Part shown: positions 24,490 to 55,900 of the stretch, in pieces
How the letters are laid out: the number at the start of each line of letters is the position of its first letter
Position numbering within the stretch: the first letter of the stretch is position 1
Assembly (NCBI GenBank): GCA_030704615.1
Contig: CM060734.1
Location: 63,240,001-63,304,000 of the forward strand
Length of the DNA stretch: 64,000 bases
Reading direction: 5' to 3'
Origin: Takakia lepidozioides
Taxonomy: Eukaryota; Plantae; Bryophyta
Made by a program: the position numbers and the translations under genes
The notes under the pieces: generated by a model
The model's input: the letters and a program-made list of their open reading frames with translations, nothing else
Database searches by the model: none
What the model was told of the DNA's origin: nothing

Positions 24490-25330
24490 GAAGTCTTTTG
24501 GCTTCGGAGGATTTGACGCCGCCTCTGGAGAATACCCTTGTTGACATGTATGCCAAATGCGGGAGCATGAAGGATGCGCACCAAGTGTTTGACAATAATG
24601 CCCAGCGGAATGTGGTGTCATGGAGTGCAATGATCGGAGGATATGCTCAGCAATGGTGTGGTAGGGAGGACGGGTTGACGCCCAACAGTGTCACGTTCAT
24701 TTACGACCTCAGTGCGTGCGCCACCATGGGAGTGCTGGAAAAGGGCAAAGAGGTCCATTCTGACATCCTAAGCTGGAATCATGCTGGATAACAAACTGGA
24801 AACCGCCTTTGCTGACATGTATGCAAAATGTGGAAAGCATGAAAGATGCCCGGCAAGTGTTCGACAATATGGTTGCACGAGATCAGGATCCTTGAGCTTA
24901 TGTGTTGCTATCAAGCATCTATGCTGCGGCTGGCAGGTTATGATAGAGCGAACTGAGAAGAATGATGGATGACAGAGGTGTCAATAAGGAGGCAGGGCGC
25001 AGCTGCATTGGGGTTGACAACCAGGTGCATACATTTGTCGCAGAATTGAGAAAGAGCTGAACAGATTGTCTGACGGAGGCTGGATACGTGCCTGACACAC
25101 GCTTTGTACTGCATGATGTGGAAGAGGAACAAAAGGCCACGCACAGTGAGAAGCTGGCCATTGCTTTGGGCTCATCAGCACGCCTCCCGGGACACCTATC
25201 CGTGTCGTAAGAAATCTTCAGGTCACCGCCACCAAGTTCATCTCAAAGACTGTGTGGCGAGCAGTTGTTTTACGGGATCCCAGCCGCTTTTACCACTTCC
25301 AAGATGGGTATGTATGTTCTTGTGGAGATC
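24490..25330 (+). pseudogene. Heavily deleted PLS-PPR-DYW pseudogene (copy A)
   Basis: [64 protein letters not shown] and [11 protein letters not shown] fragments, with frameshifts and deletions. Confidence 0.88.
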
Positions 25331-32721: not shown

Positions 32722-35700
32722 TCTGTTTTTGGGTACTTTCCTGTTGCCACTTGGCAGTAGCATGTCAGAATCAGTCCAAAGCACAGTAGATCGACCCAAC
32801 GAGTTTCCTCGCAGAATTCAACATAACAACTTATGGACGATTCTAATACGAGGAAAAAGCAGGCTGAAAGAAGAAGCTGCCCTCACCACATTGTCCTTGA
32901 ACTTGTGTCATGACCCATGGAGGATTCAACTGACCATGAACACAAAAGGACCTCTTGTTGCTTCTAGTGTCTGTAGTCAGGTGATCTCGGATTGGTCTGT
33001 GAGAACCACCTTGGTGCAGCTGAGCAGCCATAGATTGAAACACCTCCTCCTAAGACCAAGTACCTTGTAAACACCAGGAAATTAGAAATTATGATATTTT
33101 CCTGACCCCAGCCAATGGTGGGACCATCAACACAAAAAGGTGAATGCCTGTAAGATACAGAGAGATGCAGATAACAAGATGCACTGCAGAGCTTTGTTGG
33201 AAATTGTTATACTCTCTCTCCCAAGCGCATTTTTAAACTCTTGGGAACTACTGTGCGATGGTAGAGTTTGGGTGTTTGCTAGAACAAATGTAGGCTGGCA
33301 TTGTCAGCTGGTAGCAGCAAGAGGAGGATCTATATATGACTGGTGCATAGGCAGGGATAGCTGAAGGAGCAGGGATAGAGTGTGGGTCCAGATTCATCCA
33401 AGTGGACTGGATTTCAGGCACAAGATTACCTATGATTTCCTGTGGATTGATAGCTACAAGAAACCTGTATGGGTAGATGGTCAACTGGAAGCAGCAGCGG
33501 AAGCGGTGCCACTATCGATAAAGTCAGGCACTGCTGATGCAGGCACCTTTTTCAACACATTTCAGCCTGTTTTTCCCTCTTATCAGAATCGTCCCTAAAT
33601 TTTTGTGTTGAATTGTTCGAGTTAGCTTGGTGAGTGAGTGATTTTGACATGTTACTGCCTATGTGGCAACAGGAAAGTATCCGAAAACAGATAACAGAGA
33701 GGAGGAGAAGCTTGGAATGAATATCTTTCCAAGCCCAGTCAATGGTGGGACAATCGAAGCAAAAAGGTGCTCTGTGAGGCAGGGCGACTGAAAGAGGCTC
33801 TACAGACGTTAAACCAAGGAGGCATTTCAGCAGATTCAGATATGTCTGTCTCTTGCGTAAGTGCATCAAGATGAAAGGAAAGCTGGAAAGCAGGTGCATG
33901 CTCACACATTTTTCTACAAAACACCCTTACCGACATGTATGTTAAATGTGGAAGCATCGAGGATGCTCACCAAGTGTCTAATAGAATGCCTGAACGAGGT
34001 TTGATCACGTGGAATATAATGATGGCAGGATTTACCAAGCATGGGTGTGGTAGGAATGCTTTGGAGACATGAGCAAATGATGCGGGAAGGGGTGAAGCCC
34101 AATCGGGTCACGTTCATTTGCATCTGCAATGCATGTGCGAGCCTGGCAGCCCTGGAAAAGGGCAAAGAGGTCCATGGTGACATCGTCAACGCAGGAATTG
34201 TACTAGATGTTGTTCTGAACACTGCTCTGATGAACATGTATGGCAAATGTGGAAGCATCAAGGATGCAAAGGGACTGTTCGACAATATGGCTGAACGAAA
34301 TGTGGTGTCGTGGAACGCGATGATTGCAGGATATGCACAGCAGGGGCGCGGGATGGAGGCTTTGGAGACCTATGAGCAAATGATGCGGGAAGGGGTGCAG
34401 CCCAACCACATTACGTTTGTTTGCGTTTGCAATGCGTGTGCAAGCCTAGGATCCCTGGAAAAGGGCAAAGAGGTCCATGGTGACATCGACAAAGCTGGAA
34501 TTGTACCAAATGTCATCCTGAACACGGCCCTGGTGGACATGTATGCCAAATGCCATAGCATTGAAGACGCAAAGAGGTGTTTGATTATATGGCTGGTGTC
34601 ATGGAACGCGATGATTGCAGGATATGCACAGCAGGGGTGTGGGATGGAGGCATTGGAGATCTATGAGCAAATGATGCGGGAAGGAGTGAAGCCCAACCAC
34701 GTCACATTTTTTTGCATTTGCATTGCATGTGCGAGCCTGGCAGCCCTGGAAAAGGGCATAGTTGTCCATGGTGACATTGTCAAAGCTGGAATTGTACCAA
34801 ATGTGATTCTGAACAATACCCTCGTGGACATGTATGCCAAATGTGGGTGCATTGAGGATGCAAAGGGAGTGTTCGACAATATGGCTGAATGAGATGTGGT
34901 GTCTTGGAGCGTGATGATTGCAGCACAGCAGAGGCGCGGGTTGGAGGCTTTGGAAGCCTATGATCAAATGATGCAGGAAGGAGTGAAGCCCGACCACATC
35001 ACATTTGTTTGCGTTTGCAATGCGTGTGCGAGCCTGGCAGCCTTGGAAAAGGGCAAAGAGGTCCATGGTGACATTGTCAAAGCTGGAATTGTACCAGATG
35101 TTGTTCTGAACACGGCCCTGGTGGACATGTATGCCAAATGCCATAGCACTGAAGATGCAAAGGGAGTGTTCGACAATATGGCCGAACAAGATGTGGTGTC
35201 TTGGAATGTGATGATTGCAGGATATGCACAGCAGGGGCGTGGGATGGAGGCTTTGGAGACATATGAGCAAATGATGCGGGAAGGAGTGAAGCCCCACCAC
35301 ATCACGTCTGTTTGCGTTTGCAATGCGTGCAAAGAGGTCCATGATGACATTGTCAAAGCTGGAATTGTACCAGATGTCATTCTTAACAATACCCTTGTGG
35401 ACATGTATGCCAAATGCGGGTGCATCGAGGATGCAAAGGGAGTGTTTGACAATATGGCCGAACGAGATGTGGTGTCCTGGAACGCGATGATCGCAGGATA
35501 TGCCCAACATGGTTGTCATAGGGAGGCCCTGCAACTATTTGAAGGAATGCAAAAGGAAGGCTTGAAACCAGACAGCATCGCCTTTACATGTGTTCTCTCT
35601 GCATGCAGCCATGCTGGCCTACTGGATGAAGGAAGATCCTACTTTGATTCCCTGCGTCGAGATCATGGTGTCACTCCGACAGTGAAGCACTTTGGCTGCA

Positions 35701-36383
35701 TGGTGGACCTTCTTGGATGTGCAGGGCAATTGGATGAGGCAGAGGACCTCATTAATAAAATGCCAATCAAACCAGATGCTGCAGTGTGGAAGGCCTTGCT
35801 AGGTGCCTGCAGAATCCATGGCAATGTGGAGATGGCTGAATGTGCGGCAATATCTATTCTCAAGTGGAATGAACAGGATGCCGCAACTTATGTGTTGCTA
35901 TCAAACATCTATGCCGCAGCTGGCAGGTGGGACGATAGTGCAAAGGTGAGAATAATGATGACGGTCAGAGGGGTTAGAAACGACCTGCTGCATTGAGGTT
36001 GGCAACCGGGTGCACACCTTTGTTGTAGACGACAAATTGCATCCCAAAATTAAGGAAATCCATGCTGAGCTGAGAAGTTGTCTGGGCAGATGAAGGAGGC
36101 AGGATATGTGCCTGACACGCGCTTTGTATTGCACGATGTGGGGGAGGAGCAAAAAGAATTTTCTCTTTGCCACCACAGTAAGAAGCTGGCCATTGGTTTT
36201 GGGCTGATCAGTACATTCCCTAGGACGCCTCTCCGTCTCATTAAGAATCTCCGGGTGTGTGGTGACTGCCACACCTCCACCAGGTTCATCTCAAAGATTG
36301 TTTGCCGAGTGATTGTTGTACGGGATGCTAACCGCTTTCACCACTCCGAAGATGGGGTTTGTTCTTGTGGGGATTACTGGTGA
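32722..36383 (+). pseudogene. PDF-motif/PLS-PPR-DYW pseudogene (copy B, 7 PLS triplets)
   Basis: PDF half-exons (FPDPSQWWDHQHKK; IHPSGLDFRHKITYDFLWIDSYKKPVWVDGQL; KPSQWWDNRSKK) precede a PLS array, E1/E2 and a DYW domain ending CSCGDYW. Frameshifts, TGA at 34890, and catalytic HSE changed to HSK. Confidence 0.9.
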
Positions 36384-39300
36384 AATGATGTTTTTGTGGA
36401 AAGATGCAAGTGACTTGCTTCATGCATTGATCTGTGCAGCAGCTACTCAGTTCATCCACCATTTCCTGAGAATTCTGACCATGATGTACTGTTGAGGGCA
36501 TTTTCTGTGGCATGGTAGTGGGTCTACCCAGCATAGGTGGGAAGTCAGCCCATACTTGTACTTGACGGGAGCAGGTAATGAGTGAAGGGGGAAGTTTGAC
36601 TGACTCCGGTGATAGTGGAAGAAATTAGAGTGCTGTCCTAATTCTGGTGTGGGTGGGGGAGCTTGTCCAGTGAATGCGATTCAAAACAAGCTTGATCAGA
36701 GGGGCAGCCCGCACAAGTTTGTCCAGCATCTTAAGTTTAGACATGTTTGATTGTTTCTTGCGGTGCTGCTTCAGATAGAGCTCTTGACTAACTCGCATGA
36801 ATGTTGTCAAAAGCTAGCCTTAACTTACTTCGTGAATTGGATTTGCATGACTCCCTCACACTGTAACATCGGTTTTTGCATGTTGGAGTTCAAGGTCGGG
36901 GTGGATTCCACCTGCTTACCTACAGTTCGAGACCAGCATGGATGAATCAATCCTGCATTTTTCATGCAACAATTGGCAATACTGTCAGTCTCCCAGGAAG
37001 CAGGTGCCGATCGCTGGCATGACTCCCAGTGTTCTCAAACAACCGAAAGCCCTCCTTGATACTCCTATATATCAAGGACCAATGACAAGGTATAAGTATC
37101 AGCAAGCATAGTAGGGTGGGTGCACAAATCAGAATGGGGCCTGACCCCACATGAACCTTGGCGGGCATGTCTCTCTCTCGCTGGTCTAGGAATTCTCCCT
37201 GTCCAAATACAATATTATCGATGAGAAATACCTCCTTGTAGATGCGGCCATGTTGGACTATGAGGCTTGGAGCCTGTAATATCTCCTGCCTAATTGGGAC
37301 CCTTCTCCTTTATTTGCTACGTGGGATATCTGCGTCATGGACACTTTTTTGGATACTTTTTGACTCGTCTTCTTTGGTGATCGGGCGGTGGTTTGTGGAT
37401 GTGATTTAAGGCCTGGCATTCTTCGCTAAGAAAAGCCAACCCACTGGAAATTTCTGCAGCTCATGCCATCTGGGCAAAGGCTTGAGGAGGTTCCCTCGAG
37501 CTAGATAGGCTCTACGGGCAGTTAGTTGCGAGGCATCCACAGCAAGCAAGCGTGGGTTCGTACCAGCCCAAGTACAGCCCTTGAATCAATCAAGGATATC
37601 ATTGACCACAGACTAGGCTTGCAGCTCTCCACCAGAGAGTGACGCTTGGTTTATTACGGGGAGGTTCCTTCTCCTGGGCACAGCTCGGTATCTGCGAGCC
37701 CCGACACTCTGAGGTTGCCTGAACGCTCACTCAACCAGGTGAAGGCATCAACAATATCTGGAGAGCCAATTTACACGAGGCCCTGGCACCCTCTTACAAC
37801 GAGGCATCCATCAAATATCAAGTTGGTGGTTAAGCTCTTTAGAGCTCATGATGAGCCCATAAATTACACCATGCCTGATAGAACCTACAAACCTGGTGAA
37901 CGGGTGTGGAAATACTACACAGAGCTTAAAAATACAGTTTGCAAGGCCATTCCTATACCTTCTCAACGAGCAGCTGTTCTGAAAACTTCAGAAGCACCCA
38001 TATAAAGATGAGCAGCAAATCGTAGAAATGATTGATGAGAGGATGCGTTTGAAAGTAGCATCTAAAGCTTCACCATAGGTGCCAGCTGCTCATGCTACAT
38101 TATTTCATGGGGGACATATTTTGGGGAGGATTGAGAAAGGGGGTGGTTTGTGTTACTGCGGTTGGAGAAAGTATTGCGAATCAAAGCGGGCTCCAAGTTG
38201 ACATCACTGGTTGTCAATGTCATGGTTTTAGTCATGGTTATCTAGAATTACCTACTTCTAGTTAACTAGGACAATTTAGATATTTATATTTATATTTTGT
38301 GTGTTGGGATGTCATTGGGCCTCACATGCCAAGTGAGGTGTCGAGCCTCACTTGGGACATGGGGATAGGTTTTCCCCTTGTGAGGATGGAGGAGGCTCAT
38401 CTTCTTGTAGTTGAGCCTCCATGAGCTTCTCTCACCTCCATAGTTCTTGGTATTGAGAGGGAGTGTGTTGAGGGCTTTGTAGGGTGGATTCCCTTAGCAA
38501 GGGTGCCCTTGGCTTGACTTAGTTTATGTGACTAAAGGCTTGTTAATGCTCATTTCACTATCAAGCTAGGGTTAAGCAAGTTCAAAGTATGGATGTTGTG
38601 GAAGAGAAGCCAAGGAGCTACATATGTTTGGGCAAGCACTTGGATAGCACTAAGAAGCTCAAAATGTTTAGAAGGAGAGCATGTGAAGAAATCTTCCAAT
38701 CATGGTGGTGTGGAGCCAAGCTTAGGGCGCCATTGGAAGGGCTTGGAGAACATATGGTGGGAAATCCTTGAAGGGAAATCATCATTCAATGTATGCATAG
38801 CTTCACCCTAACTATGTAATGTGACAAGAGGAAGAGGCAATACTTGGCTATTCATGCTCTTGGTGGTGCGAGCTTTGTGGTGGATAGTTGACTAAGCAAG
38901 TGGTGCATGTGTGGAGCATGCTCTCTTGAGTTTGTAAGTTCAAGTTTGAGAAGGGAAGCTCTTGAACAAGCAAGAGGTGAAGGCCTTGAGATCCATTTGT
39001 GTGTGAAATGGAGAGGTGTTGATTCATGTTAGGATGAAGGAGAGCAACACATAGGCCAAGAGGTCATGGAACATGCATTCAAATGACCAAGGGAAGCACA
39101 TGGATGATGGATTGGTGCAAGACCCCAAATGAAGCATATGACGTAAGAGTGGGATCCAAGGCAGATTGCTTGGAAGCATTATTGTAAGTGACAAGCATTG
39201 CTCCTACACATTTGAGATAATTTGTGTTGATTTGGAGCAATTGTCAAGTAATGAGGAGACAAATGCATGATTGTTCGGCAATGGAGATATGATAGTTTGC

Positions 39301-39510: not shown

Positions 39511-39900
39511 TCAGACTATACCTCTGTTAGTATACCAAACAAGAGCTTGTCCCTTTGACTATACCTCTGTTGAGGTATCACCATATGTGAACCCTAATGT
39601 GAGACTACACCTCTGTTAGTATACCAAACAGGAACTTGTCCATTTTACTATATCTCTATTGAGGTATCACCATATGTGAACCCTAATCAGCTCAGACTAT
39701 ACCTCTGTTAGTATACCAAACAGGAGCTTGTCCCTTTTACTATACCTCTATTGAGATATGACCATATGTGGACCCTAATCAGCTCAGACTATACCTCTGT
39801 TAGTATACCAAACAGAACCCTCATTTTCAGACTATATCTCTGTAAAAGTATCATCAACATAAGGGACCCTAACAACCTCAGACTATACCTCTGTTAAGGT
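39511..39900 (+). repeat. Tandem array in the LTR: ~92-bp dimeric unit with nine copies of the core (G/T)ACTATACCTCTGTT
   Basis: Cores at about 39514, 39557, 39603, 39646, 39695, 39738, 39787, 39830 and 39881, with alternating spacers (AGTATACCAAACA.. and GAGGTATCACCATATGTGAACCCTAAT). Confidence 0.9.
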
Positions 39901-42580
39901 ATCAACATTGAAAAGACTTGGTGAAATTTAATGGCCTTTGGAGGATTGTTTGGAAGATATTTGAGGGCCTTTGGAGGAGTGTTTAGAGGATCTTTGGGGT
40001 CCTTGGAGGAGTATTGGAGGACCCTTCGAGGAGCTTTGGTGGAGAATGTTGAAGAGCTCTTGAAGGATTGATTGAGGGATATTTGAAAGATACTTGCCAC
40101 GGCCATACAAGCGAGTGGATAGAGACAGGAAAGAGAGTGGTAAGATGAGAGCATTCTGGGGTTAGGAATCGCTTTAGTTTCTCTTCTCCATAGTCTTTCA
40201 CCATCTCCGTAGACCAAAACATTTCCGTAGGTGGAGGCAAGAGTCAATCCGGGTTTGGGCTGGGGTGTTCTTACAATAGCGACACTGTGGAGTGTTTTTG
40301 TCTACGTTAGAAACCTATTATTCCTGCTTGAATCAGTAGCCGCAACATGTTCTCTACCCGGTTACCTTGTGGAAAGTGAGGATTAGAGACAGGTTGACAA
40401 CCGGTTGGGTTGTAAGTTTTCATCACGGAGGTGCCACCAGTTGCTGAGGGGAGTGCTGGTACGAGCACCAGCGATACTAGTAGGTACACAAGACGAGGTG
40501 TGCGGTTTATGCCACTTTCACCTTCACTATCTTCTGAGGAAGGTTTAGACACGGAGTCAGGAGGATTCTCGCCGAGGGTGCAAGTCATTTCCGTACTATT
40601 TTTGTGGGACACGATGGAGGAGATGTATCGAGCTACCAAGGGGCCACGTAGGTACTCTGGAGTTGTGGGCACCATCGAACTTGATGACTTCATATAAGTA
40701 GTTTGACAGTTGGTGTGATTTGCAGCAAATGCGCAATCCACAACTGTTTACGCCTTTTATGGCGTGGAAGGGGCTATTCCAGCACCTTGAGGGGCCGCCC
40801 ATGGATGATTACCAGGAATTTAGGCGGGGACATGCGGTGAAGATTGAGGAGTGGCGAAAGTATTGGTCACCTAACTATGTCTCCATCACTAGAGGCACAA
40901 GGGCAGCGGCGACACCAGCAGTTACACAAACATCTCCAACTGCAAGCACTAGTAGTGGGACAAGTGGTACAGGAGCTGGGAAATCCACTCAAGCTCGTGC
41001 TGCAGCACCAGCACCCGTGCCTGCCTTAAACCCAGTTGTGGAGTTCTTCGAGGAGTTGATGAGAAACTACCAAGGGATAAGGACAGAGAAGTTGCGGAGC
41101 TTGCAAGAGTTCCAACGAAGGTCTACTGAGAGTTTGAGGGAGGCTTACACTCGCATGAGGCGCTTGATAAACGTAACCCAAGGGGTTACAGAAGCTCAGG
41201 CAGTCTAGTTCTGGTATAGGATCCTGGATATGGAGCTGAGGAGAGGGGTGCGGGATGCAACTCTCCGACAAGTGGACCAACCCACCTTAACAAATGTGTT
41301 TTTATTGGCAGAGCGGATAGAGCTCAATATGGTGGAGCAGCGAGTGGTTATGGTGGGGTTTGGCAAGGAGACACAACGAAGTGGGGCTTCTAGCCAACAA
41401 CAACCACTATCCCAACATAGCCACGAGTGTCATTGGGGAGAGTTGGTGTGGCTCGGGAAATGCCAGTGGGTGGTGGTGCAAAGGAAGGTGCAGCCAGTAC
41501 ATTGTTGGGGGCGGCTACGGCAGTTTGCCAAACTCCATTATTTTCTACAATGACCATTGCAATGTCGGGGATTCGGCCAGCTGCTGTATTCAAACTAGCA
41601 GCTAGACTCTGTGAGAGTAATGATGCATCGGCATTATCTACGGAGATAGCAGATAAGGTGTAGTCTATGGATGCTTTGGATTCGAGGGTGAAGTCAGCCA
41701 GAACTGCGTCATAGCAAGCGGCAGCTGCAAGGTTGCAGGAGTTGTCGGCTAGGCCAGCCATTGAGCGCAACATGGTGACTCTTGGGGTAGTCCTGGTGGA
41801 CATTCAGGATGGAGTGTTTCCATTGGTGGCCTAACCGGGAGGAGGTATAGGCCACTGCGGGTCTTCTTGGACTCGGGAGCACAGCCATTGATGTTGGGGA
41901 GAGCAGCAATTGCAGGCTTGGGCCTTACAGAGGCGGATTTGGAGTCTTGCCCTTTCCAAAGTCAAACATCTTTGGGCGGTTCAAAGAAGGCACGAGGGAT
42001 TACGCGCCATGAGCTCTTCATTCGATTGCAGTCAGATCATCCTACAGATGGCTCTGTCATGAGAGCTAAAGCCATTGTTACGGATGCAATGTCTTATGAT
42101 GTGCTTGTTGGTGGGGGTGTGTTATACCCAACGAGCTTTACTTTGGACTTTTGGGAGGAAACGACATCCTACAGGCCAGAATGGCAGTTAGGGGATGGTC
42201 AACGTGTACTGCTCCCATTGCGGTTTATTGGGAATGTAGCGGAGGATCATAGGAACATGATGCCCACATTGGCTGCATTCTCAGGGGTGGTGGCTTGGGG
42301 TGGTGAGCTCTTGGAGGGCAATAGCCATGTAGATGATAGGTCACCACTTGATGAGGATAAACAATTGGCATACAAGGCTGATTTGCTTCCTCATGTGTCT
42401 GTTCATATTCCACTGTGGGGTACAGTTGGGAATTTGCATTGAGTAGCATGCGAGTGTGTGCACCAAGCATGGCAGGAGGCCTATCCATTGGTGAGTGAGG
42501 GGAGTTCAGTGACATCACCTAGACCTCCTCAGTTAGCTCATTTGGACACAATGCCCATTACCTGGCAACCACCTGACTCA

Positions 42581-43520
42581 GGGATTTGTTTGCTAGACAT
42601 ATTTGGAGGCATGAGCACTGGGCTTGCAGGAGTGTTGCAAGCAGGGATTAAAGTATGCAAGTACTTGTGTGTGGAGAAGGATGAGATAGCTCGGCGTATT
42701 TCTATGCGCCACATCGCCTTGCTCACACACCGGTATCTTGAGTTGTTGCCTCTCTCAACAATTCAAGGGTATCAAAAGGCCTTGCCAGCAGACATTACCT
42801 TGCTGGGGGCGGATGATTTGGACCGGCATGGTGCCATTGACTTGGTGATAGCTGGATGGCCTTGCCAATGACACTCTCCCGCAGGTCATGGGAATGACTT
42901 GCATGATGCACGATTGCATTTGTTTTGGGAGATGTTGAGAGTGTTGTGTGACTTACAGATGAGGCAAGTGCAACCTCTAGCCTATATCTTGGAGAATGTT
43001 CCTCTTATGGGGGACTCTCGGGCTAGGGTTATGGCCAGTGTGCATCAGGTGCGGTCTTGGATTAGATCGGCGGTGTTATTGGATGCAGCAGCGGTGGGAT
43101 CATTAGCGCATCGACCTCGATTGTGGTGGACCAATCTTGCACCACCAGAGCTACTCAAGAGAGCATACGATTCCATTCAACGGCCACCCACTCTCAAAGT
43201 TGAGGGCATTTTGGACCAAGGGAGGCAACCATAGAGGGTACGACATGATGACCGTCCACCTCTAGCAGTGGTAAATCGAGTGGGGCAGCCACGTGCAGCC
43301 TTGCCTACGCTCATGAGCTTTCCCTCGTCTCATGTTTTTCGAGACAATGGTCCTGGGTTGATTTGGGACAGTGTGCTATAGCAACTGGTGGAGCCCAATG
43401 CGGATGAGCGAGAGCGGGCAATGGGATTTGCCTCGGCCACTACAGCTGTGCCAGCTCTATCAGAGGCATCACGACGCCAGATGTTGGGTCAGGCAATGGA
43501 TCTCAATTGCTTGACATGGG
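42581..43520 (+). pseudogene. C5-cytosine DNA methyltransferase domain (DNMT3/Dcm-like) within the retrotransposon pol
   Basis: Motif I LDIFGGMSTG, II VEKDE, IV IAGWPCQ, VI ILENVP, VIII AHRPRLWWTNL, IX ERERAMGF, X RRQMLGQAM. One reading frame shared with the protease, broken only by point stops at 42869, 43232 and 43379. Confidence 0.92.
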
Positions 43521-46500
43521 TTATTGGCTTGTGCATGGCTGAGCAACGGAGATTGCAAGCATTGGTGGCTATTTCTGCACTTCCATTGGATATTGCACCA
43601 TCTCTGCCAACCAGGAAGGTGGAGGCAGTGAGTGGGGGCGAGCACATGATCATGGGGTGCAAACACCCATGGTAGATGTGGGATGAGATGCGCAAAGAGA
43701 GAGTCATTGGATCTCTCAAGCAGCAGTATGAGGAGTGGGGAGAGCCATACATTGAGGATCAGTTGGAGGCCAAGGTGGCCAATGTTTTTGAAGAGGTTGA
43801 GAATGTTTTTTCCCCAGAGGATGTTCTGAAGGTGGCTATGGCGGAGCAAGTGGAGGCTACGCCACGGTCAGGGTAGGCGAATAAAGCCCAAGAGTTTGCT
43901 ACTAACAACCAAAGGATACATCTCCTATTTCCAAGCCTAGTGTACCCAAGGTTGCAGTCATTGAGGACAACTGGGAACCAGATGTTGGACCTACAGTCAC
44001 CAGAGAAGAGAAGCGGAGGATCCAACGATTTCTAAGGGCTTATAGAAATTGCTTTGCCTTCGGTTTGAAGGATTTGGGGAGTTTGAAGGGCCAGGAGATT
44101 TGTATTGATTTGGCAAGTGACACGCCAAATTTTCGAAGGCCCTACAGGTATAGTGATATGGAGAGGTCTTTGATCCAGTCACGGACTATGGAGTTGTTCG
44201 AAGCTGGATTGGTGGAGTTGTCAGGCGGGGAGTATGCCTCGGCAACAGTGATGTCAGCTAAGAAGGATATCTATGGCAATTGGACAGAAAGGAGGATGTG
44301 TGGGGACTACCATCCTGTGAACCGTCAGACTAAGTCCGATAGATATGTCATGCCAACTCCAGAGGAGATCTTTGATGTCATTGGGCATGCAAAGGTGTTT
44401 AGCACATTGGACTTGCGATCCGGTTACCACCAGTTGCCAATCAAAGAGGCTGACAAGCAAAAGACGGCATTCTGCGGGATTGACCAACATGGGAATGATT
44501 GCTTGTACCAATGGCGGTTCCTACCGTTTGGGTTGAAGAATGCTCCTGCAGAGTTTCAGAGGGTCATGGATAGGATTCTTGCGGGGCTAGACTTCGTCCG
44601 GTGCTACATTGATGACATCATTATCTTTAGTGCTACGATTGAGGAGCATGAGAAACACCTTCAGATGGTGTTTGAACGTTTGAGAGCGCATGGGTTGAAA
44701 TTGCACCCTGGGAAGTGCAAGTTCTTCCACAACTAGATTGAGTATCTGGGCCACATGATATACCCTGGAGGATTGGGTGTTCAAAAGACGAAGGTGGAGG
44801 CCATTGCACGCATTCCACGCCCCATCGATATTAGCAGAGTTCGTGCTTTCATGGGGTTGGCAAACTACTATTGACGGTTTGTCAAGGGATTTAGTAGCAT
44901 TGCAAAGGCTCTTACCAAGTTGACCAAGGCGGGTCAGGAGTGGCAGTGGGAGGAGGAGCAGGAAAAAGCCTTTGAAGAACTTAAGGCTCGATTAACTTCT
45001 GCGCCTATTCTGAGGCGGCCTATTCGGGGGCGGTCTTTCCAGCTACATACAGATTGGAGTATGCTGGGGATTAGAGCAGTGCTCACATAGGTGGATGATG
45101 AGGGAAGAGAGTTCGTAGTAGCATATGCTAGCCGCTCGAACAATGATGCCGAGGCAAAATATAGTTCCTATGAAGGGGAGAGTCTAGCTGCAGTATGGGC
45201 AGTGGCACATTTTAGATGCTACCTCTACGACAATCTCTTCACCCTTGTCACGGATCACCAGCCATTGAAGTGGTTGATGGAGTCAGACAAGCTTACATGG
45301 AAGCTTGCACGGTGGGCACTTATGCTTCAAGAGTACGACTTCCAGGTGGTGCATCGAGCCAGAATAGTCAACCAGGATGCAGATGGATTGAGTTGCAATC
45401 CATGCACAAGTGAGCTTGATGATTCAGGAGCTCATTAGCATGGTGAGACGGACGAGGAGATGGTGCCAGGATGGCACGCATCTGCCTTTTTATGCAGCGA
45501 TGGGAGCTCAAGCTGGTCCATCCAATGTAATTGGTCATAGAGATAGTGTGCATGACAATCCAAAGATCAGTGATGAGCTTGGTGGTGCTAAGGATGTACA
45601 TGAAGATGTAGCAGTGTTGGCCTACCTTCGTACGAGAGAGACAACAGCCAGTATGACTGCTAAGAAGAGAGATCGGATCCTACAACGAGCCAAGAGGTTC
45701 AAATGGGAGGGGACTTACATACTCCGAGTATGGGAGGATGGATGAGTGAGGATTGTGCCTCATCCAACACAACAAACGCGATTGGTACGCCATGCCCATG
45801 AGGAGTTGGGACATTTTGGGGTGCAGCGCACTCATAGTTTGCTGCAAGGACAGTATTGGTGGCGGGGCATGCACACGGATGTGCAACAATTACTGGCAAG
45901 ATGCATGGTGTGTGATAGAGTGCGGGCTTCTTTCAACGCCCCTACTCTACAATTACATCCTTTACCCATTATGGGTTTGGGCTATCGTTGGAGTCTTGAC
46001 TTCGCAGGCCCATTGCCACTAATGATTCGCCATAACAAATATGTGCTAGTGATGGTGGAACATTTCTCCAAATGGATTGAACTGGTGGCATTGCCTGACA
46101 AGGCAAGTGAGGGGGCTGCGTATGCATTCTTAGATCGAGTGCTTAGTCAATTTGGTGCTCCAGCCGAGGTACTCACGGACCAAGGGAGAGAGTTCTTGGA
46201 GGAGTTTTCAGGCTTTGTGTGAGCAAACCTTGATAGATCACCGCACTACTTATCGGGATTATCTCGAGGCTGATGGCTTGGCTGAGAGGGTTGTGCAAAT
46301 AGGCAAGCGAGGCTTGCGTAAATATGGCTTGCAGAAGGGACACTTGGGAGATTGGGACCTTCATCTACCTTGGTTGGCCATGGGTTACAGGTTTAGCATG
46401 CAAGCATCACTTGCCTTGTTCTCGCCTTATTTCCTTCTCTTTGGCCGAGAGCCAGATTTGCCTGCATCTATTCGTAGGGAGACTGCAGTATTCTTCAACC

Positions 46501-46889
46501 TTGATGATCCGGATGTGTGGACACAAGCATGTGCCCAACGGGTAGAGTTGTTCAAGAGAGTCATGCCTATGGCTTTTGATAACCTTACTATTGCCCAACA
46601 CCGAGACACATTGAGATACGCCACTATACGTGGAGGGGGATATCGGCCAGGTGTTCGGCGTTTCCATCTTGGGGACTATGTGTATCTGCAGCAGATAGCG
46701 CATACGACTTTGGATGTCACAGCAGGTCGTGTGATTCTAAGGGCCCGGGAGGTGTTGCCTTCAGGAGTGTAAATTGGAGGGTCGAGATGACATGGTATGG
46801 AAGGACCGCACAATTGTGCGCCATGTCACCTTCCACATATGGATGGGAGGATAGATCCCAACCTTGCAGTGGTACTTGTAGGGTTGCGT

Positions 46890-47025
46890 TGCATGCTATG
46901 TGGGTATGCTGGTGGTGTCGCGACCATGTTGGTGTATGACAAATGTTGAAGGGGGTGGCACATGGGATGCTTGACACCGCCACTTGAGGAGGTTCCCAGT
47001 GGAGAATGATTGTGTCCACGATGCC
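46890..47025 (+). other. PHD finger at the integrase C-terminus (decayed)
   Basis: CMLC...MLVYDKC*RGWHMGCLTPPLEEVPSGE*LCPRC matches a Cys4-His-Cys3 pattern with the typical P.L..VP.G.W.C..C signature. Confidence 0.85.
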
Positions 47026-48269
47026 TTGGACAGAGGTAGTGGGGCATGATAGTGGCGAGGTTGGCAAGTGATCCAAGGTCTAGCTAAGGAGTTCAATGAC
47101 ATGGACACCCAATTGAAGCCATGGATTGCAGGAAGGCAAGTAACGATGGGGCTACTTTTGCACCCGACCTCTTAATCTATTGACTTCAGATAGTAGGACT
47201 TGGGCGATTGATGACCAAACGATGATCTTATTGGGATGGATACTTGTTAGCTATCTGGTGTTAGAGGGACCTAATCACCGGCTAGGGGGGCGATTGTGGT
47301 ATAGTTTTCTAGGATTGTGTGCTTAGATTGTGTGGTGGACAGCGATGTATGTTGTGGTACGATGCTTAGGTGCACGACAGCTGTCATGGTTTTAGTCATG
47401 GTTATCTATAATTACCTACTTCTAGTTAACTATGACATTTTAGATATTTATATTTATATTTTGTGTGTTGGGATTTCATTGGGTCTCACATGCCAAGTGA
47501 GGTGTCGAGCCTCACTTGGGACATGGGGATAGGTTTTCCCCTTGTGAGGTATACCCTATTTTTCTGAAGGGTATATGCTAAAATGAAAGGTATGTCTAAT
47601 CAGGGTATATAAGGTAACATACTGCAAATTTTCTCCCTGCCTTGCTTCATCAGCCAATACTTTGATGCTGGACAAATGAGCAGTGCCACAGCTTGGTGAC
47701 AGTGAATATTATTCAGGTTTACTTTGCACTCGCCATTTTGATGGCTAACGTCACTCTTGACACCAAGCCGATGGGTTTATATCTAGTGCCGTCTGCAATA
47801 GTGAGCTGGAGCCACACTCACTGCTGCCGGGTGTAATTGATTAGTATGAAAATGACAAAAAAAATTAAGCAACCTTTAAACGAAAGGGATCGTTCGAAAA
47901 GGGGCTGAACGATCGAAAAATCAGAAACCCTGTCAAACATGAACTTATGGTCTCTGCACGGTGTTTTGAAATTGGCTCCACCAACTATAATGCTCCAGGG
48001 AACCCACCCTAAATTACCTCATACATGTTCCTTGTAAATGGTGGCCCCCCTATGAGATCCTGCGGTTGTGCTCTGCCAAGAGTGTGACGATCTGAAGGCC
48101 TGAAACTGACTATGCTTGTCATTGCATCCACGAGCATCGTTGCTAATGTAACTAACTTAGTGGTGACCAATATACTTGATGTCGTGCACCTAAGCATCGT
48201 GCCACAACATACATCGCTGTCCACCACACAATCTAAGCACACAATCCTAGAAAGCTATACCACAATGAT

Positions 48270-48592
48270 AAGAGTGTACTCATAAGATGTTGTTTGCCGT
48301 AGCCTTGTGGCCATTGACCCCGCGCCCAGTTTGAGCGGGAACAAAAGGAACAGAACCTACCTCTGTCAGGGGCTGACGTTGGTAGTAAGACTTACCTTCA
48401 TATAAAGAATTAATCCGGGTTTTCCAGATATCCTCTAGAAATCCCTTCATACAAGCATCAATCTGATGTGTGTGATTTGCCCAAAAACTAGGCCTCAGGA
48501 GGGCCTGGGCTTTTGGCTCAGCCTCGAGACTTTCAAAGTTGGTAAACAGGGGTACAGGCACAATTCCCTTGATAGAGTTGAAGAGAGCGTCT
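48270..48592 (-). mobile_element. Fifth 3'-end fragment of the TC-tailed non-LTR element seen at 28.0-29.3 kb
   Basis: [21 protein letters not shown]...[20 protein letters not shown]...GHKATANNIL, near-identical to the intron copies. Confidence 0.85.
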
Positions 48593-48889
48593 CTTGAGAG
48601 AAGTGGAAGACAATGAAAACTCTCAAAGCATGAAGCAATCACACTAAGAACAAACCCTAGTCTTTCCAAGTGAAATCCACTCTATCACATAAACTAAGTC
48701 AAGCCAAGGGCACCCTTGCTAAGGGAATCCATCCTACAAAGCCCTCAACACACTCCCTCTCAATACCTAGAGCTATGGAGGTGAGAGAAGCTCATGGAGG
48801 CTCAACTGCAAGATGATGAGCCTCCTCCAACATGTTACTAAAGATACATCAGTGGAAAATTCCTTTACTTGGCAAAAACAGTGAAGCTC

Positions 48890-49160: not shown

Positions 49161-50297
49161 TACATAACACAAGTCTATTGGATGACCTTGTAGACTAGTT
49201 GGTCATGCTTGCCAGCACTGTGCCAATTCCCTTCCTTGGAGAGTTATCCTGGTCTCAGTGAGGAAGACAGGACGGACATCTCTAGTGGACCAAGAATCTG
49301 GCTTCACAAGCCCGTTTTAGTCAAAAAGGAGTGCCCACAGTGTATGGAGCATCCTGTTGAGTCTGAGAGAGGGTGACCATCTGCCCAGTGAGTACCCAAG
49401 AACTGTTTTGGGGGTGGAAGAAATAGACATGGTGGGAGCCAGCAATAGGGAGGTAGGAACAGGAGCGTAGAGCGATGTACAAGAGCTACGGGAGTAAGAC
49501 TTGTGACCAGCCTTCTAAAGAATCCACACCAGCGCTGAGAGGGTATATAAAAAGGACCGGAGGGCTCTGCTCTTGGTGGGCTTTCCCACCTCCAACTTAC
49601 TTTTTCCTAGCTAAACAGCACGCAGGGCCACCACTAAAAAATGGCGTCAAACAGGTACCAGCCGTAACTACATACTAGCTCAATAAGTTTCTAGGATACT
49701 ATACATGTTAAGGACTGTGATCTGGTCATTAAGAACCAAGACTACCTCTGTTTAAAAGGCGTTTATTTTAAGAAGGCCTGTTTTTGGATTAGTCTCATTT
49801 CTGCGTGTGGATATTCCACAATGTAACTTTACTAGCTAAAAATACTTCGACATGAACTTGACTTGTTTTGGAGGGAACCCTCTGTTAAGTTACTTTAGAA
49901 ACCAACCCAGACCATGCCAGAAAAACATGCTGTAAATTAGAATACTAATATACCATATAAAATGAGGGTGGCAGTTAAACTAGACTTACTGAACACTAAA
50001 GCTCGTGTCCAGCGGACTTCCTGAGTCAGAAGTGAAGTTAATACCTCCTGAGCTTTCTAGTTCTCCCTACGCTAAGGGCAATTTTGGGTTGCCTTTCTAC
50101 CTATGCTGGGTATACTCCACTATCGGCTCTTGGAGGGTTGATATGCCAGAGGAAATGTCTTCACCCAGTACATCCGACCCAATATTCTCAGGAAATGGTG
50201 GATAAACCAAGGAAATGCCAGGAAATGGTGGATGAACTGAGTAGCTACGTAGATCAATGAATGAAGAAAGCTCACCACTTCCCAGGAAAACGTCGTT

Positions 50298-53200
50298 TCA
50301 CCAGTAATCCCCACAAGAACAAATCCCATCTTCAAAGTGGTGAAAGCAATTAGCGTCCCGTACAACAATTGCTCAGCCAACAATCTTTGAGATGAACTTC
50401 GTGGCACTGTGGCAGTCACCACACACCCGAAGATTCTTGATGAGATGGAGAGACGTCCCAGGGACGGTGCTGATCAGCCCAAAGGCAATGGCCAGCCTCT
50501 CACTGTGGTGGCAGAGAGAAAATTTCTTATGCTCCTCCCCCACATCATGCAATACAAAGCGCGTGTCAGGCACATACCCTGCCTCCTTCATCTGCCCTGA
50601 CAATCTTCTCGGCTCAGCAAGGATTTTCTCAATTTTAGGATGCAATTTGTCATCGACAACAAAGGTGTGCACCCTGTTGCTGACCTCAATGCAGCAGCGA
50701 CCTGGCTCCTTTCTAACCCCTCTGACCTTCATCATTTCTCTCACCTTTGCAGTATCATCCCACCTGCCAGCTGCCACATAGATGTTTGATAGCAACACAT
50801 AAGTCGCGGCATCCTGTTCATCCCACTTGAGAATAGATGTTGCTGCACGTTCAGCCATCTCCACATTACAGTGAATTCTGCAGGCACCAAGCAAGGCACT
50901 CCACACCACATCATTTGGTGTCATTGGCATTTTGCTAATGAAGTCCTCTGCCTCATCCAATCGCCCCGCACGGCCAAGAAGGTCCACCATGCAGCCAAAG
51001 TGCTCCATTGCTGGAGTGATGCCATGTTCTTGACTCAGGGAATCAAAGTAGTATTTGCCTTCATCCACTAGGCCAGCATGGCTACAGGCAGAGAGAACAC
51101 ATATAAAAGTGATACCGTCCATCTTCAAGCATTCCACTTGCATTTCTTTGAGTAGTTGCAGCACCTCCATATCACAACCATGCTGGGCATATCCTGCAAT
51201 CATCGCATTCCACGACACCACACCTCATTCAGCCATATTGTGAAACACTACCTTTGCATCTTCGATGCTCCCGCCTTTGGCATACATGTCCATCAGGGCA
51301 GTGTTCAGAATGACATCTGATGCAATTCCAGCTTTGATGATGTCGCCATGGACCTCTTTGCCCTTTCCCAGGGCTGCCAGGCTTGCACACGCATTGCACA
51401 CACAAACAAACGTGACCCCATTGGGCTTCACCCCTTCCCGCATCATTTGCTCATAGGCCTCCAAAGCCTGCATTCCACACCCATTCTGGGCATATCCTGC
51501 AATCATTGCATTCCAGGACACCACATTTCGGTCAGGCATATTGACGAATACTCCCTTTGCATCCTCGATGCTCCCGCATTTGGCATACATGTCAACCAGG
51601 GCAGTGTTCAGAATGACATCTGGTGCAATTCCAGCTTTGATGATGTCAGAATGGACCTCTTTACCCTTTTCCAGGGCTGCGAGGCTTGCACATGCATTGC
51701 AAACACAGACAAAAGTGATCCGGTTGGGCTTCACACCTTCCTGCATCATTTGCTCATAGGTCTCCAATGCCTCCATCCCACACCCATGCTGGACATATCC
51801 TGCGATCAATGAATTCCAGCACACCACATCTCATTCCATCATGTTGTTGAACACTCTCTTGGCATCTTCAATGCTCCCACTTTTGGCATACATGTCCATG
51901 AGGGCACTGTTCAGAATGAATCTGGTACAATTCCAGCTTTGATGATGTCGCCATGGACCTCTTTGCCCTTTTCCAGGGCTGCCCGGTTTGCATGCACATT
52001 GCAAACGCAGATGAATGTTACACGGTCTGGCTTCACCCCTTCCCGCATCATCCTCTCATAGGTCTCCAAAGCCTCTATCCCACACCCTTGCTGAGCATAC
52101 CCTGCGATCATCACATTCCAGGACACTATATCTCGTTGGGGCATATTGTCGAACACTCCTTTGCATCTTCAATGCTCCCGCATTTGGCATACATGTCCAC
52201 AAGGGTACTGTTCAGAATGACATCTGGTGCCATTGCAGCTTTGATAATGTCACCATGGACCTCTTTGCCCTTTTCCAGGTCTTCCAAGCTCGCACATGCA
52301 TTGCAAACGCTTACAAATGTGACCCGGTTGGGCTTCACCCCTTCCTGCATCATTTGTGCATAGGTCTCCAAAGCCTCCATCCCGCACCCATGCTGGGCAT
52401 ATCCTGCAATCATCGCATTCCAGGACACCATATCTCTTTGGACCATATTGTCGAACACTCCCTTTGCATCCTTGATGCTCCCACATTTGGCGTACATGTT
52501 CATCAGGGCAGTGTTCAGAATGACATCTGGTACAGTTCCAGCTTTGATGATCGCCATGGACCTGTTTACCCTTTTCCAGGGCTGCCAGGTTCGCACATGC
52601 ATTGCAAACGCAGATGAACGTTACACGGTCTGGCTTCACCCCTTCCCGCATCATCTGCTCATAGGTCTCCAAAGCCTCCATATCCTGCGATCATTGCATT
52701 CCAGGACACCATATCTCGTCGGGCCATATTGCTGAGTACTCCCTTTGCATCCTTGATGCTCCCACATTTCGCATACATGTTCATCAGGGCAGTGTTAGAA
52801 CAACATCTGGTACAATTCCAGCTTTGATGATGTCGCCATGGACCTGTTTGCCCTTTTCCAGGGCTGCCAGGCTCGCACATGCATTGCAAACGCAAACAAA
52901 GGTGATGTGGTTGGGCTTCACCCCTTCCCGCATCATTTGCTCATATGTCTCCAAGGCATTCTTACCACAGCCATGCTTGGTAAATCCTGCCATCATTATA
53001 TTCCACATGATCAAACCACGTTCAGGCATTTTGTTGAACACTTGTTGGGCCTCCACAATGCTCCCGCATTTAACATACATATTGACAAGGGTGTTGTGTA
53101 GAAAAACATTTGGCTTGAATCCACTTTGGATAATGTGAGCGCGCACCTGCTTTCCGGCTTCCAGGACTTTCATCTTGATGCACTTATGCAAGAGACAGAC

Positions 53201-55900
53201 ATAAGTATCAGAATCTGCTGAAATGCCTCCTTGCCTCAGAATCTGTAGAGCCTCCTTCAGTTGCCCTGCATCACATAGCATCCTCACATGCCCAGAAGAG
53301 GTGTTGTGGACTCCCTCTCTTGGTCCTCCTTTGGAGACTGTGGTCATGGTGGAGGTGCCTGATTTTTTCAACTGTGCCACTGCTACTGCTTCCAGCTGAC
53401 TATCCACCCATGCAGGTTTCTTGTAGCTATCAATCCACAGGGAATCATAGGTACGCTTGTGCTTGAAATCTGGCCCTCTTGGATGAATCTGGATACACCC
53501 TCCATCCCTGCTCCTTCAGCTATCCCTGCCTCGGCAGCAATACTGCTGCTAGCAGCTGACAGTGACAGCCTAATTTTTATCTAGCAAACACCCCGACCCT
53601 ACTTATCAAACACTAGTTCCTATCCTGAATTGATCCCAAGACATCACAAAATGCTGGGGAGGGAGAGAGAATGACAATTGACAAAGAAAGCTTTGTGATG
53701 AATCTTGTTGTCTGCCTCTGCTTGTAATCTAACAGGCATTCACCTTTTTGCCTGGATTGTCCCACCATTGACTGGGGTCAGAGAAACATTCCTTCCAAAG
53801 CTTCTCTTTGTCTCTGTTTTCAGTTATTGGATATTTGCCTGTTGCCAGTGGCAGTAAAATGTCAAAATCACTCCAAACCACCATAGGTCTTCTGTTTTTT
53901 GTTTGTTGCCAAATTGGCAGTAACATGTCAAGATCACTCCGAACCACCATAGATCCACCCGACAAGCTAACATGCAGAACTGAACATGACAAATTAGGGA
54001 CGAATCTGATAAGAGGACAAAACAGGCTGAAACGTGTTGAAGAAGAAATTGCCCTTACCACATTGTCCTTGACCTCGTGTCATGAAAGCACCTAGCTTTT
54101 CTTGCACCCAAGGAGGATTCAACCAACCATCAACCCAAAGGACTTCTTGTTTGCGTTGCTTGTGTCTGTAGTCAGGTGATCTCGGATTGGTCTGTGAGAA
54201 CCACCACAGTGCAGCTGAATAGATTTAAACAAGGCCTCCTAAGACCACGCTGATCCTCCCGATTCAACCAACCATCAACCCAAAGGACTTCTTGTTTGCG
54301 TTGCTTGTGTCTGTAGTCAGGTGATCTCGGATTGGTCTGTGAGAACCACCACAGTGCAGCTGAGTAGATTTAAACAAGGCCTCCTAAGACCACGCTGATC
54401 CTCCCGATTCAACCAACCATCAACCCAAAGGACTTCTTGTTTGCGTTGCTTGTGTCTGTAGTCAGGTGATCTCGGATTGGTCTGTGAGAACCACCACAGT
54501 GCAGCTGAATAGATTTAAACAAGGCCTCCTAAGACCACCCTGATCCTCCCGAGTACCTTGTAAACACCAGAAAAAGAACAAATCATGATACTGACAGGAA
54601 TAGCCCACTTCTGTAGAATGAACAAACTTCTTCACATTGTATATTAAGAAAGCCACACCTTGCCATCCCACCATTGTGAAGGATCTTTTAAAAACTCATG
54701 CCAACGCTGCTCCATGCTCCAAGGTAGACCTTCGTGTCCGAAACTCCGACGGTATCAACAATTTGACCAGTTCCTTTTACGGAGGAGTGCCAGTGAGCTT
54801 TCAACAACATTTGTGCAAGTGACTGTGGGCACGATTGGACTCTACACAATGAGGAACATACCAACACGTCTGAACTTACACAGATGCTAAACAAGCTTGT
54901 GCATGACAGGCTGCCCCTCTAATCAGGTCACTGTGAGTCATACTCACTTTCATCTGCAAGCTTCGAAGGAGCTCCACCATCTACACCAGAATCAGCACCG
55001 CACTCTGATATCTCTCCACCATCACCAGACTGTTCTTGTGGCATGGCAATTAATTTTTCTTTCACCCAAGGAAGATTGAACCGACCCTCAATGCACATGC
55101 CCTCTTGTGTGCCCTGCTTCCGTCTGTAGTCTGGAGATTTTGGAGTGGTCTGTGAAAACGACCAGGGAGCAGCTGAGCAGCCACAGTCTCATCCCCTCCC
55201 AAGCACCATGCAGACTCCAGGGGAAAGACCTTCTGCATCCTACTTTCATTCCCATCTTACGAAGAACAACCTATGACACTGAGAGTAAAAGCAGTTTATG
55301 CAGAGAAAAGCGATTCTAACTTCAATCAACAACTAGGTGTACAATCGAGTCCACACAATATGATCATAGCAGACTTCCTTAGAAAGCTCACCTTGTCAAC
55401 GCTGCAGTCCCACCATTGTGAAGGATCTATAAAGAACTCCTCCCAGCGCTGTTCCATGCTCCAGCGTTGACCTACGTGCCCGAAATCCCAGTTATCGGCC
55501 TTGTCTTACTATCCCGTGTGCTATCTTGCTTCTTTGCCCATGCTGTTGAATTGCTCAGAAGAGCCTGGATCCTACGGCGCATACAACACAGCGACCCCAA
55601 AAGGGAAGCGGCACAGTGTTTCGGGTTGTCACCTAATTTGAATTGCATCCCTGAAGGTTGACGAGGCGCCATATCCACCACATGCAAGGAATTCCGTCCT
55701 CTCCGCATTGCTAATGGGGATGCGGCTCCACAGTGCATGACGCGAAGCCTCTGGCATTACCGGAACGAAAGGACAGGGCCTTGGATATGGGGTCGGCCAT
55801 GGAGGCATAGGATGTGCTGAGGGATGACGCCTGCTTTGAGGTAGCTACACACGATGGCAGCACCACCCTCTTTCTCCACACCACCCCATCATCACGCATT
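50298..55900 (-). pseudogene. PDF-motif/PLS-PPR-DYW pseudogene (copy C, three PDF motifs, 8 PLS triplets)
   Basis: Same exon layout as copy D (e.g. 55471-55392 QRWEEFFIDPSQWWDCSVDK; 55149-54948 TTPKSPDYRRK...PWVKEKL; last exon IHPRGPDFKHKRTYDSLWIDSYKKPAWVDSQL running into the PPR array). Several frameshifts and TGA stops (51831, 51225, 50373). Confidence 0.92.
54116..54550. repeat. Three near-identical tandem 145-bp copies covering an acceptor site and a PDF half-exon of copy C
   Basis: GATTCAACCAACCATC... starts at 54116, 54261 and 54406. Confidence 0.95.

Follow-up and report, generated by a model that had tools for sequence, protein, structure and literature searches.

Retroelements that encode a cytosine DNA methyltransferase (MTase) of their own are known from dinoflagellates and from the charophyte alga Klebsormidium (PMC5890265), as an earlier note on the DNA studied here had stated. 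KnitGypsy-Dnmt3 of Klebsormidium nitens combines the Gypsy domains with an intronless Dnmt3-related MTase in its polyprotein (PMC5890265). SymbioDIRS-Dnmt3 also carries a Dnmt3-type domain in a split-repeat retroelement but differs from the element described below in its tyrosine recombinase, its dinoflagellate host and an MTase that lies in the same ORF as the reverse transcriptase (RT) (PMC5890265). DIRS and PAT elements bear a methylase as well, albeit of the adenine type (PMC5890265). Plant Ty3/gypsy clades in REXdb share the order Gag-protease (PR)-RT-RNase H (RH)-integrase (INT) and target duplications of 4 or 5 bp; two-ORF Gag-PR layouts and self-priming (in Tcn1) are also on record there, and the words "methyltransferase" and "PHD" have no occurrence in the main text (PMC6317226). 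A 2025 follow-up reports MTase-bearing elements "in streptophytes and dinoflagellates" (PMC12344493). What makes retroelements retain DNA methyltransferases has been an open question since 2018; the hosts known so far are algae for which genetic tools are scarce.

Here we describe such an element in a 64,000-nucleotide stretch of DNA from the moss Takakia lepidozioides (the window). The earlier note knew of no description in embryophytes, and the literature searched, which lies outside subscription papers, Repbase, theses, the main supplement to PMC5890265 and the supplements to PMC12344493, where bryophyte rows may be present, agrees: it yielded just the 2018 study of de Mendoza et al. and its 2025 follow-up, with no land-plant description, and the available text of five further papers (PMC8557442, PMC11982613, PMC6453930, PMC5784723 and 10.1101/363937) makes no mention of the family. 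Because the lineage is old and shared with algae, the T. lepidozioides element extends an already described kind, the MTase-bearing Gypsy element, to land plants. KnitGypsy-Dnmt3 has an alga as host and this element a land plant. The former has been called an acquisition of the K. nitens lineage, whereas the present family ranges over bryophytes, Closterium, Mesostigma and a chlorophyte. The accessible text of PMC5890265 describes KnitGypsy-Dnmt3 with no mention of a PHD finger, target duplications, a circle model or a conserved stop ahead of RT. What appears to be new is a predicted readthrough layout together with circularly permuted ends that an integrase would have made.

A Ty3/Gypsy element with a DNMT3-like domain

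The element lies between its ends at 38218 and 48180 with its coding region on the plus strand, and its domains follow the order Gag-PR-DNMT-stop-RT-RH-INT-PHD. A leader with four tandem units of ~92 nt (39513..39877) precedes Gag (40614..41415), which is interrupted by stops and frame changes, and an aspartic protease with a DSG motif (41834..42199); both give weak Pfam matches below the cut-off. Beyond the MTase lie the RT (43969..44733; RVT_1, E 6e-30), the matched part of RNase H (45091..45435), a DDE integrase with an H2C2 zinc finger and one frame change (45746..46769) and, at the integrase C-terminus, a PHD finger with two stops (46860..47030), for which the open relative L033 gives a Pfam PHD match at E 3e-10. 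Decay is extensive, with 18 stop symbols in seven tblastn segments and ~6 frame changes. The Gag-PR-RT-RH-INT order with a DDE integrase is that of Ty3/Gypsy elements, and the RT, RNase H and integrase, taken with a Pfam DNA_methylase match, bear out what the earlier note had read, a Ty3/Gypsy element of land-plant type that encodes a C5 MTase itself.

The MTase domain itself spans 42581..43540 on the plus strand and follows the protease in a single frame (41765-43876). Three point stops (42869, 43232 and 43379) alone break it, as the earlier note had seen, and the domain reaches ~43540. With X in place of these stops, the window domain matches Pfam DNA_methylase at E 3e-11 (43.7 bits; cut-off 22). 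Its motifs, FGG, VEKD, GWPC, ENVP, HRPR, ERER and LGQA, stand in canonical, unpermuted order and free of introns, in the protease frame and between protease and RT, just as had been claimed; the motif numbers used here follow the general C5-MTase scheme. SAM-binding motif, catalytic PC, ENV and RxR thus occur in the sequence typical of C5 cytosine MTases. An identity as DRM was considered and rejected, since the motif order is permuted in DRM.

Sequence and structure comparisons both place the domain nearest to DNMT3. Among solved structures, the best sequence match of the window domain is DNMT3A (E 2e-11), followed at a distance by bacterial MTases (E 1e-3 or worse), DRM2 (E 0.02-0.03) and DNMT2 (merely E 0.1). 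A model of P0050, a close natural relative with 68% identity (pLDDT 72, pTM 0.76, from an 18-row alignment), finds DNMT3A and DNMT3B first, with DNMT3A at the top (E 1.5e-15); its target-recognition region is weakly modelled (pLDDT <50 at residues 249-304). The nearest solved relative is therefore DNMT3 by the sequence of the window domain and by the fold of the P0050 model. The structural alignment gives ~21% identity to DNMT3A, whereas domains from algae and from other retroelements reach 37-50%; phage and plasmid MTases, among the rows listed, are 23-32% identical, and an ESM Atlas search with the MTase returned phage-rich MTase clusters only. The host DNMT3 of animals and non-seed plants has the fold and the unpermuted motif order in common with the element domain, but the latter lacks the PWWP and ADD domains and the introns, as judged against the available text of PMC6453930. 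We identify the stretch, on these comparisons, as the broken DNMT3-like MTase domain of a dead Ty3/Gypsy copy. The three stops recur in 0, 4 and 2 of 28 loci from elsewhere, respectively.

Purifying selection on the methyltransferase

Against 28 full-length copies, the window MTase gives a median pN of 0.25 and a pS of 0.72, in a sample made up mostly of one subfamily and with synonymous sites close to saturation. Over the 25 pairs that are not saturated, omega for the MTase is 0.13, and between three subfamilies (pairs of the window, L020 and L033) it is 0.13-0.20. The pN/pS ratio of the MTase (0.34) falls between those of RT (0.23) and protease (0.43). Of the 29 MTase domains, five are free of stops. 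The catalytic PC is retained in 28 of 29 copies, and so is ENV. These ratios place the domain under purifying selection (omega about 0.13), a property that it has in common with the MTase of KnitGypsy-Dnmt3 (PMC5890265). By the dN/dS comparison that the earlier note had proposed, the domain does not evolve neutrally.

A conserved stop between methyltransferase and reverse transcriptase

The ORF1/RT junction is readable in 39 of 57 sequences, and an in-frame stop precedes RT in 39/39, always 45-69 nt before the RT anchor (TAG in 28, TAA in 11). The context CAR-YYN follows the stop in 37/39; in the other two, a second stop replaces CAR. UAG-CAR-YYA is the type I readthrough signal of TMV, which works in plants, less well with UAA (PMC2754532). 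The strict CAR-YYA form occurs in 7/39 rows and additionally in L062, across four subfamilies and in both fully open copies: these are L033, L062 and six rows including the window, which has UAA, with 30 rows relaxed and two decayed. In the window, this family-wide stop, a predicted readthrough site by its context (PMC2754532), lies at 43903..43911 (plus strand). Type I readthrough as described for TMV thus shares its strict context with both open copies and, with UAA, with the window; the family differs in that the signal divides Gag-PR-DNMT from RT and that one subfamily has CAA-CCC. The form CAA-CCC-ATG accounts for 29/39 junctions, all in one Sphagnum-like subfamily (by similarity to P0028), and these rows could also fit re-initiation.

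L033 and L062 are fully open from Gag to PHD save one stop. In L033, Gag to MTase is open for 1369 codons, followed by one TAG and, in the same frame, RT-RH-INT-PHD for 1047 codons; L062 has the same layout, and in each the sole stop is TAG-CAR-YYA. Database proteins end at the corresponding point. Motif X was found in 19 of 30 proteins, of which 18 terminate 77-148 residues past it, and Marchantia and other ORF1 proteins end at a distance past motif X that matches the stop. Five folds of the sequence 3' of the stop, made without shuffle controls, revealed no RNA structure in common.

In these frames the MTase forms the C-terminal part of a Gag-PR-DNMT ORF, and the conserved stop with its readthrough context suggests that it is probably produced at the level of Gag. 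The earlier note's phrase "inside Pol" is therefore loose. The domain does lie in the protease frame and before RT, but it closes the Gag-PR ORF, and RT-RH-INT-PHD stands beyond the conserved stop. One protein, P0181, has an MTase that runs into RT without a stop; this protein and the layout in which the MTase follows RNase H (see below), likewise without the stop, indicate that the predicted high dose is not family-wide.

Split terminal repeats and target-site duplications

The termini are laid out as A-coding-B-A-B, a circular permutation, rather than as two equal LTRs around a coding region, and KnitGypsy-Dnmt3 has the same DIRS-like order (PMC5890265). The left copy of the target-site duplication, TCAA (38214..38217, plus strand), is followed by repeat A1, which begins with TG and forms the 5' end (38218..38531, its 3' limit being provisional); a contig at unique-sequence depth spans the passage from flank to element. 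On the right, also on the plus strand, a polypurine tract (PPT; 47284..47290), a motif that likewise precedes B1 in five loci, is followed by repeat B1 (TG...CA; 47295..47379) and by the first part of A2 (47382..47549). The near-palindromic B|A junction between them (47373..47388) has as its halves the two element ends and is the predicted integrase site. The right end was later flipped by a 1.3-kb inversion (47550..48832) that contains, on the minus strand, the rest of A2 (48685..48829), an inserted high-copy repeat, repeat B2, which forms the 3' end and ends in CA (48180..48264), the right copy of the target-site duplication (48176..48179, minus-strand TCAA) and what was once the right flank. 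Read through the inversion, TCAA flanks the element on both sides. The earlier note had LTR copies that differ by about 3%. The figure stands, at 12/398 compared bases (3.0%), but the repeats are split A and B rather than paired LTRs, and the 168-nt repeat is part of A.

Other loci end in the same way. The 3' order B-A-B occurs in L010, L025, L038, L044, L048 and the window, and B was found upstream of A1 in none of 12 loci inspected (10 distinct sites). L015 and L016 have a single terminal B, which fits one-LTR circles or later recombination. Target duplications of 4 bp flank all four elements with both ends mapped (the window, L025, L038 and L016), so that the element has the TG...CA ends and the 4-5 bp target duplication of Ty3/Gypsy elements. 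L016 (13371-13490) and L044 (8060-8180) have nearly the same right flank, the former with one B and the latter with B-A-B; possibly this is one insertion site in two plants, A having been lost in one by B-to-B recombination.

The PPT stands directly before B1, where a 3' LTR should begin. In one subfamily, the bases after A1, at the position of the primer-binding site (PBS), pair with the inside of A over 16 nt in 3/14 loci, two of which are one insertion, where the control maximum is 6-9 nt; complementarity is 9-10 nt in 4/14 loci and at control level in 7/14, and the window, L020 and L062 revealed no such pairing. Together, the PPT before B1 and the pairing of post-A1 bases with A suggest that B+A behaves as the LTR. 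At six A2|B2 junctions, a 2-nt spacer is present in four, like the 2 nt between PPT and B1, while one junction keeps PBS-position sequence and one keeps PPT-side sequence. The A2|B2 junction thus resembles cDNA ends that have been joined, remnants of PBS and PPT being the mark of junctions in two-LTR circles. A two-LTR circle that is cut open at a palindrome inside the LTR would fit the PPT, the PBS-position sequence and the A|B junctions.

A different origin of the termini, in which template switching like that of PAT/Ngaro elements produces a linear A-coding-B-A-B cDNA without an end-joined circle, strikes us as rather unlikely, although it is the best of the alternatives. PAT/Ngaro elements share the A1-internal-B1-A2-B2 layout (PMC8969392, PMC7192593), split-direct-repeat DIRS elements are defined by this very repeat order (PMC8969392) and DIRS-1 cDNA is mostly linear (PMC7192593). 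A linear product would also account for the absence of the mirror circle product, A-B-A-coding-B, which was found at none of 10 sites; this speaks against the circle, since cutting at its second B|A junction should give that product. Traits of LTR elements, on the other hand, are the DDE integrase, the 4-bp duplications, the PPT before B1 and the variability of the A2|B2 junctions, where leftovers from the PBS side and the PPT side occur, and target duplications are absent from DIRS elements (PMC8969392), PAT/Ngaro elements having a tyrosine recombinase and no target duplication (PMC8969392, PMC7192593). Membership in DIRS/PAT/Ngaro was considered and rejected, the element having an rve integrase and target duplications, not a tyrosine recombinase. 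The permuted LTRs and target duplications would point instead to integration from circles, a form of LTR-element DNA usually regarded as a dead end. An LTR finder designed for a pair of equal repeats would set the limits of such an element wrongly.

An old lineage in bryophytes and algae

The domain is neither restricted to this copy nor a one-off capture, an outcome that the earlier note had set against its own reading: relatives are widespread, many copies exist in the same organism, and the domain recurs in Marchantia, Riccia, Calypogeia, Sphagnum, Closterium, Mesostigma and Scenedesmus. Protein searches returned 48 longer, 160 similar-length and three very long relatives, a profile search gave 477 cluster representatives at E <=1e-30, and 56 metagenome loci belong to the family. 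Named bryophyte relatives from the protein searches are Marchantia polymorpha (46-68% identity), M. paleacea, Riccia sorocarpa, Calypogeia fissa, Sphagnum fallax and S. troendelagicum; named algal relatives are Closterium and Mesostigma, which are streptophytes, and the chlorophyte Scenedesmus. Among 30 proteins looked up, six are from Closterium and one from Mesostigma, and Klebsormidium was absent among the organism-named relatives in these protein searches. Many unnamed gene models labelled "DNA methylase" in the genomes of bryophytes and algae are pieces of this element.

Two layouts recur. In bryophytes, Closterium and Mesostigma, the MTase follows the protease; in Scenedesmus and many other proteins it follows RNase H, and 51 proteins with an RT have it between RNase H (or RT) and integrase. 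In a quick MTase tree with phage outgroups only, which omits five short rows (three Sphagnum, two Mesostigma) and has no host DNMT3, DRM, MET1, CMT or Klebsormidium rows, the window falls together with Marchantia, Calypogeia and Sphagnum-like rows (SH-aLRT 99), and the post-RNase H layout forms one clade (SH-aLRT 99). A quick RT tree without an outgroup, without P0355 and without host DNMT3 and Klebsormidium rows joins the window with Marchantia and bryophyte-type loci (99) and these with Closterium (98). The placement of Closterium differs weakly from tree to tree, as the MTase tree puts it weakly with the post-RNase H group (87) and the RT tree with the bryophyte elements (98). In a clade of chlorophyte type formed by P0171 and related proteins, the MTase stands between RNase H and integrase; the domain may have changed place inside a single retroelement lineage or been transferred from one lineage to another. 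To judge from this distribution, the lineage is old and common to bryophytes and to streptophyte and chlorophyte algae, and its range points to one old lineage rather than a Klebsormidium oddity.

In T. lepidozioides itself, 5006 contigs of one run fall on the 1.6-kb MTase region, where summed contig depth is ~1.2e5, against 65 in the flank. Contig numbers and depth indicate many divergent domain-bearing copies in this species but give no copy number. Two runs guessed to be RNA contain short pieces, 85-90% alike, that leave the element at 42706 into the same foreign flank; these have no bearing either way on expression of the whole gene.

An MTase element was found in none of 26 candidates among viral contigs and in one of 150 candidates among prokaryote genomes, the latter being a whole retroelement contig in a cyanobacterial bin. 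This contig, L062 (1-9206), is a fully open family member assembled as a circle, and its presence in the bin is likely plant contamination. P0068 is likewise named as a protein of a bacterial metagenome-assembled genome.

Proposed life cycle and function of the enzyme

Our overall reading, to which we assign a probability of roughly 60%, is that the window holds a dead copy of an element whose live copies would make a DNMT3-like enzyme at Gag level, package it and use it to methylate new cDNA, which would pass through a circle to DDE-mediated integration. Ribosomes would pass the UAG at a low rate, leaving RT and integrase scarce and the MTase abundant, and the stop before RT predicts a high dose of enzyme per particle. 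The protease would release the MTase inside the particle, and the freed enzyme would methylate CG in the cDNA, so that new copies would arrive pre-marked. With B+A as the true LTR, reverse transcription would yield B-A-coding-B-A, the ends of which would join into a two-LTR circle; the integrase would then cut this circle open at the B|A palindrome in the upstream LTR, and the PHD finger could steer integration via histone H3 tails.

Methylation of cDNA is the likely role of the enzyme, favoured by the position of the domain, its predicted dose, its intact catalytic motifs and the CG activity known from Symbiodinium. The DIRS-Dnmt3 domains of Symbiodinium have been demonstrated to methylate CG in yeast, and the Klebsormidium Gypsy domain gave no methylation there, a result that its authors deem inconclusive (PMC5890265). 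Synonymous-site CpG depletion is 0.23-0.39 in the element, 0.23 in a LINE and 0.33 in another Gypsy element without a visible MTase, both in the same window; since it is no stronger than in elements without an MTase, there is no self-methylation footprint. A bolder form of this reading, in which the ancient lineage normally inserts a two-LTR circle and a DNMT3-type enzyme at capsid level methylates that circle, including the CGs of the integrase site, is possible but tentative. If both the circle and the capsid dose hold, the family would be a retroelement between the LTR and DIRS life cycles, with copies in Marchantia. Methylation mutants of Marchantia polymorpha exist (10.1101/363937), and with family copies in that species the question of why the enzyme is kept becomes testable.

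It is unlikely that an active MTase would instead work mainly on chromosomal DNA, at integrated copies or at the insertion site, and so restrain the family or shape chromatin. Gag-level expression is expected to give free enzyme, and the presence of MTase and PHD in one element resembles DNMT3A, which has a reader-plus-catalyst layout; here, however, the PHD sits on the integrase beyond the stop and not on the MTase. The open copies are strongly CpG-depleted (0.32-0.40), but elements without an MTase equal them. Self-restraint was raised as an option by de Mendoza et al. (PMC5890265), whereas Marchantia has a full host methylation set (PMC5784723). More doubtful still is that the domain is retained for some role besides DNA methylation, for example to bind the ends of the cDNA or the palindrome at the junction, or to methylate RNA of the element. 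The lack of DNA activity of the Klebsormidium domain in yeast (PMC5890265) and the poorly modelled target-recognition region (pLDDT <50) would agree with it, but PC, ENV and the SAM-binding motif are nearly invariant and the best matches are DNA enzymes, with DNMT2 at just E 0.1. A one-off capture of a host DNMT3/DRM gene or a bacterial dcm, carried neutrally, can be dismissed as highly improbable despite the distant likeness to DNMT3A and to phage and plasmid MTases (23-32%), given the same position in liverworts, mosses and streptophyte algae, the purifying selection, motifs unpermuted unlike those of DRM, the absence from the viral contigs searched and a single prokaryote-genome match that is a whole retroelement contig; for this copy it is refuted by a family-wide, constrained domain.

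Other features of the window

The neighbouring genes (PPR-E-DYW, WRC and TSO1-like) are of streptophyte type, as would suit a land plant, and the ESM Atlas matches of the neighbouring PPR-DYW gene lie in Streptophyta. The PPR-E-DYW genes form a cluster of at least three paralogues, 85-90% alike, at 33900-36383 (+), 50278-53515 (-) and 58800-60605 (+), with pieces at ~24500-25300; several are broken by stops or frame changes, and the cluster looks like rapid turnover of RNA-editing factors. Long inverted repeats (53644-54666 and 57796-58528; 619 nt at 96% and 261 nt at 98%, with 145-nt tandem units) stand between oppositely oriented PPR genes. A plant-like 268-codon ORF at 416-1222 (+) has no Pfam match at E 0.001.

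Other mobile sequences share the window. A LINE at 12771-18788 (-) has endonuclease-like and RT frames and an upstream ORF1-like frame. A second decayed Ty3/Gypsy element at 19891-22206 (+) retains RNase H and integrase; it is only 32-46% alike and lacks a match to the MTase. A repeat of ~300 nt in very high copy number, possibly a SINE or MITE, lies inside A2 (48271-48594) and occurs several times near 28-29 kb (28024-29331); its flanks are varied and AG-rich, and its summed depth is ~1e6 in a DNA run and ~3e4 in one presumed to be RNA.
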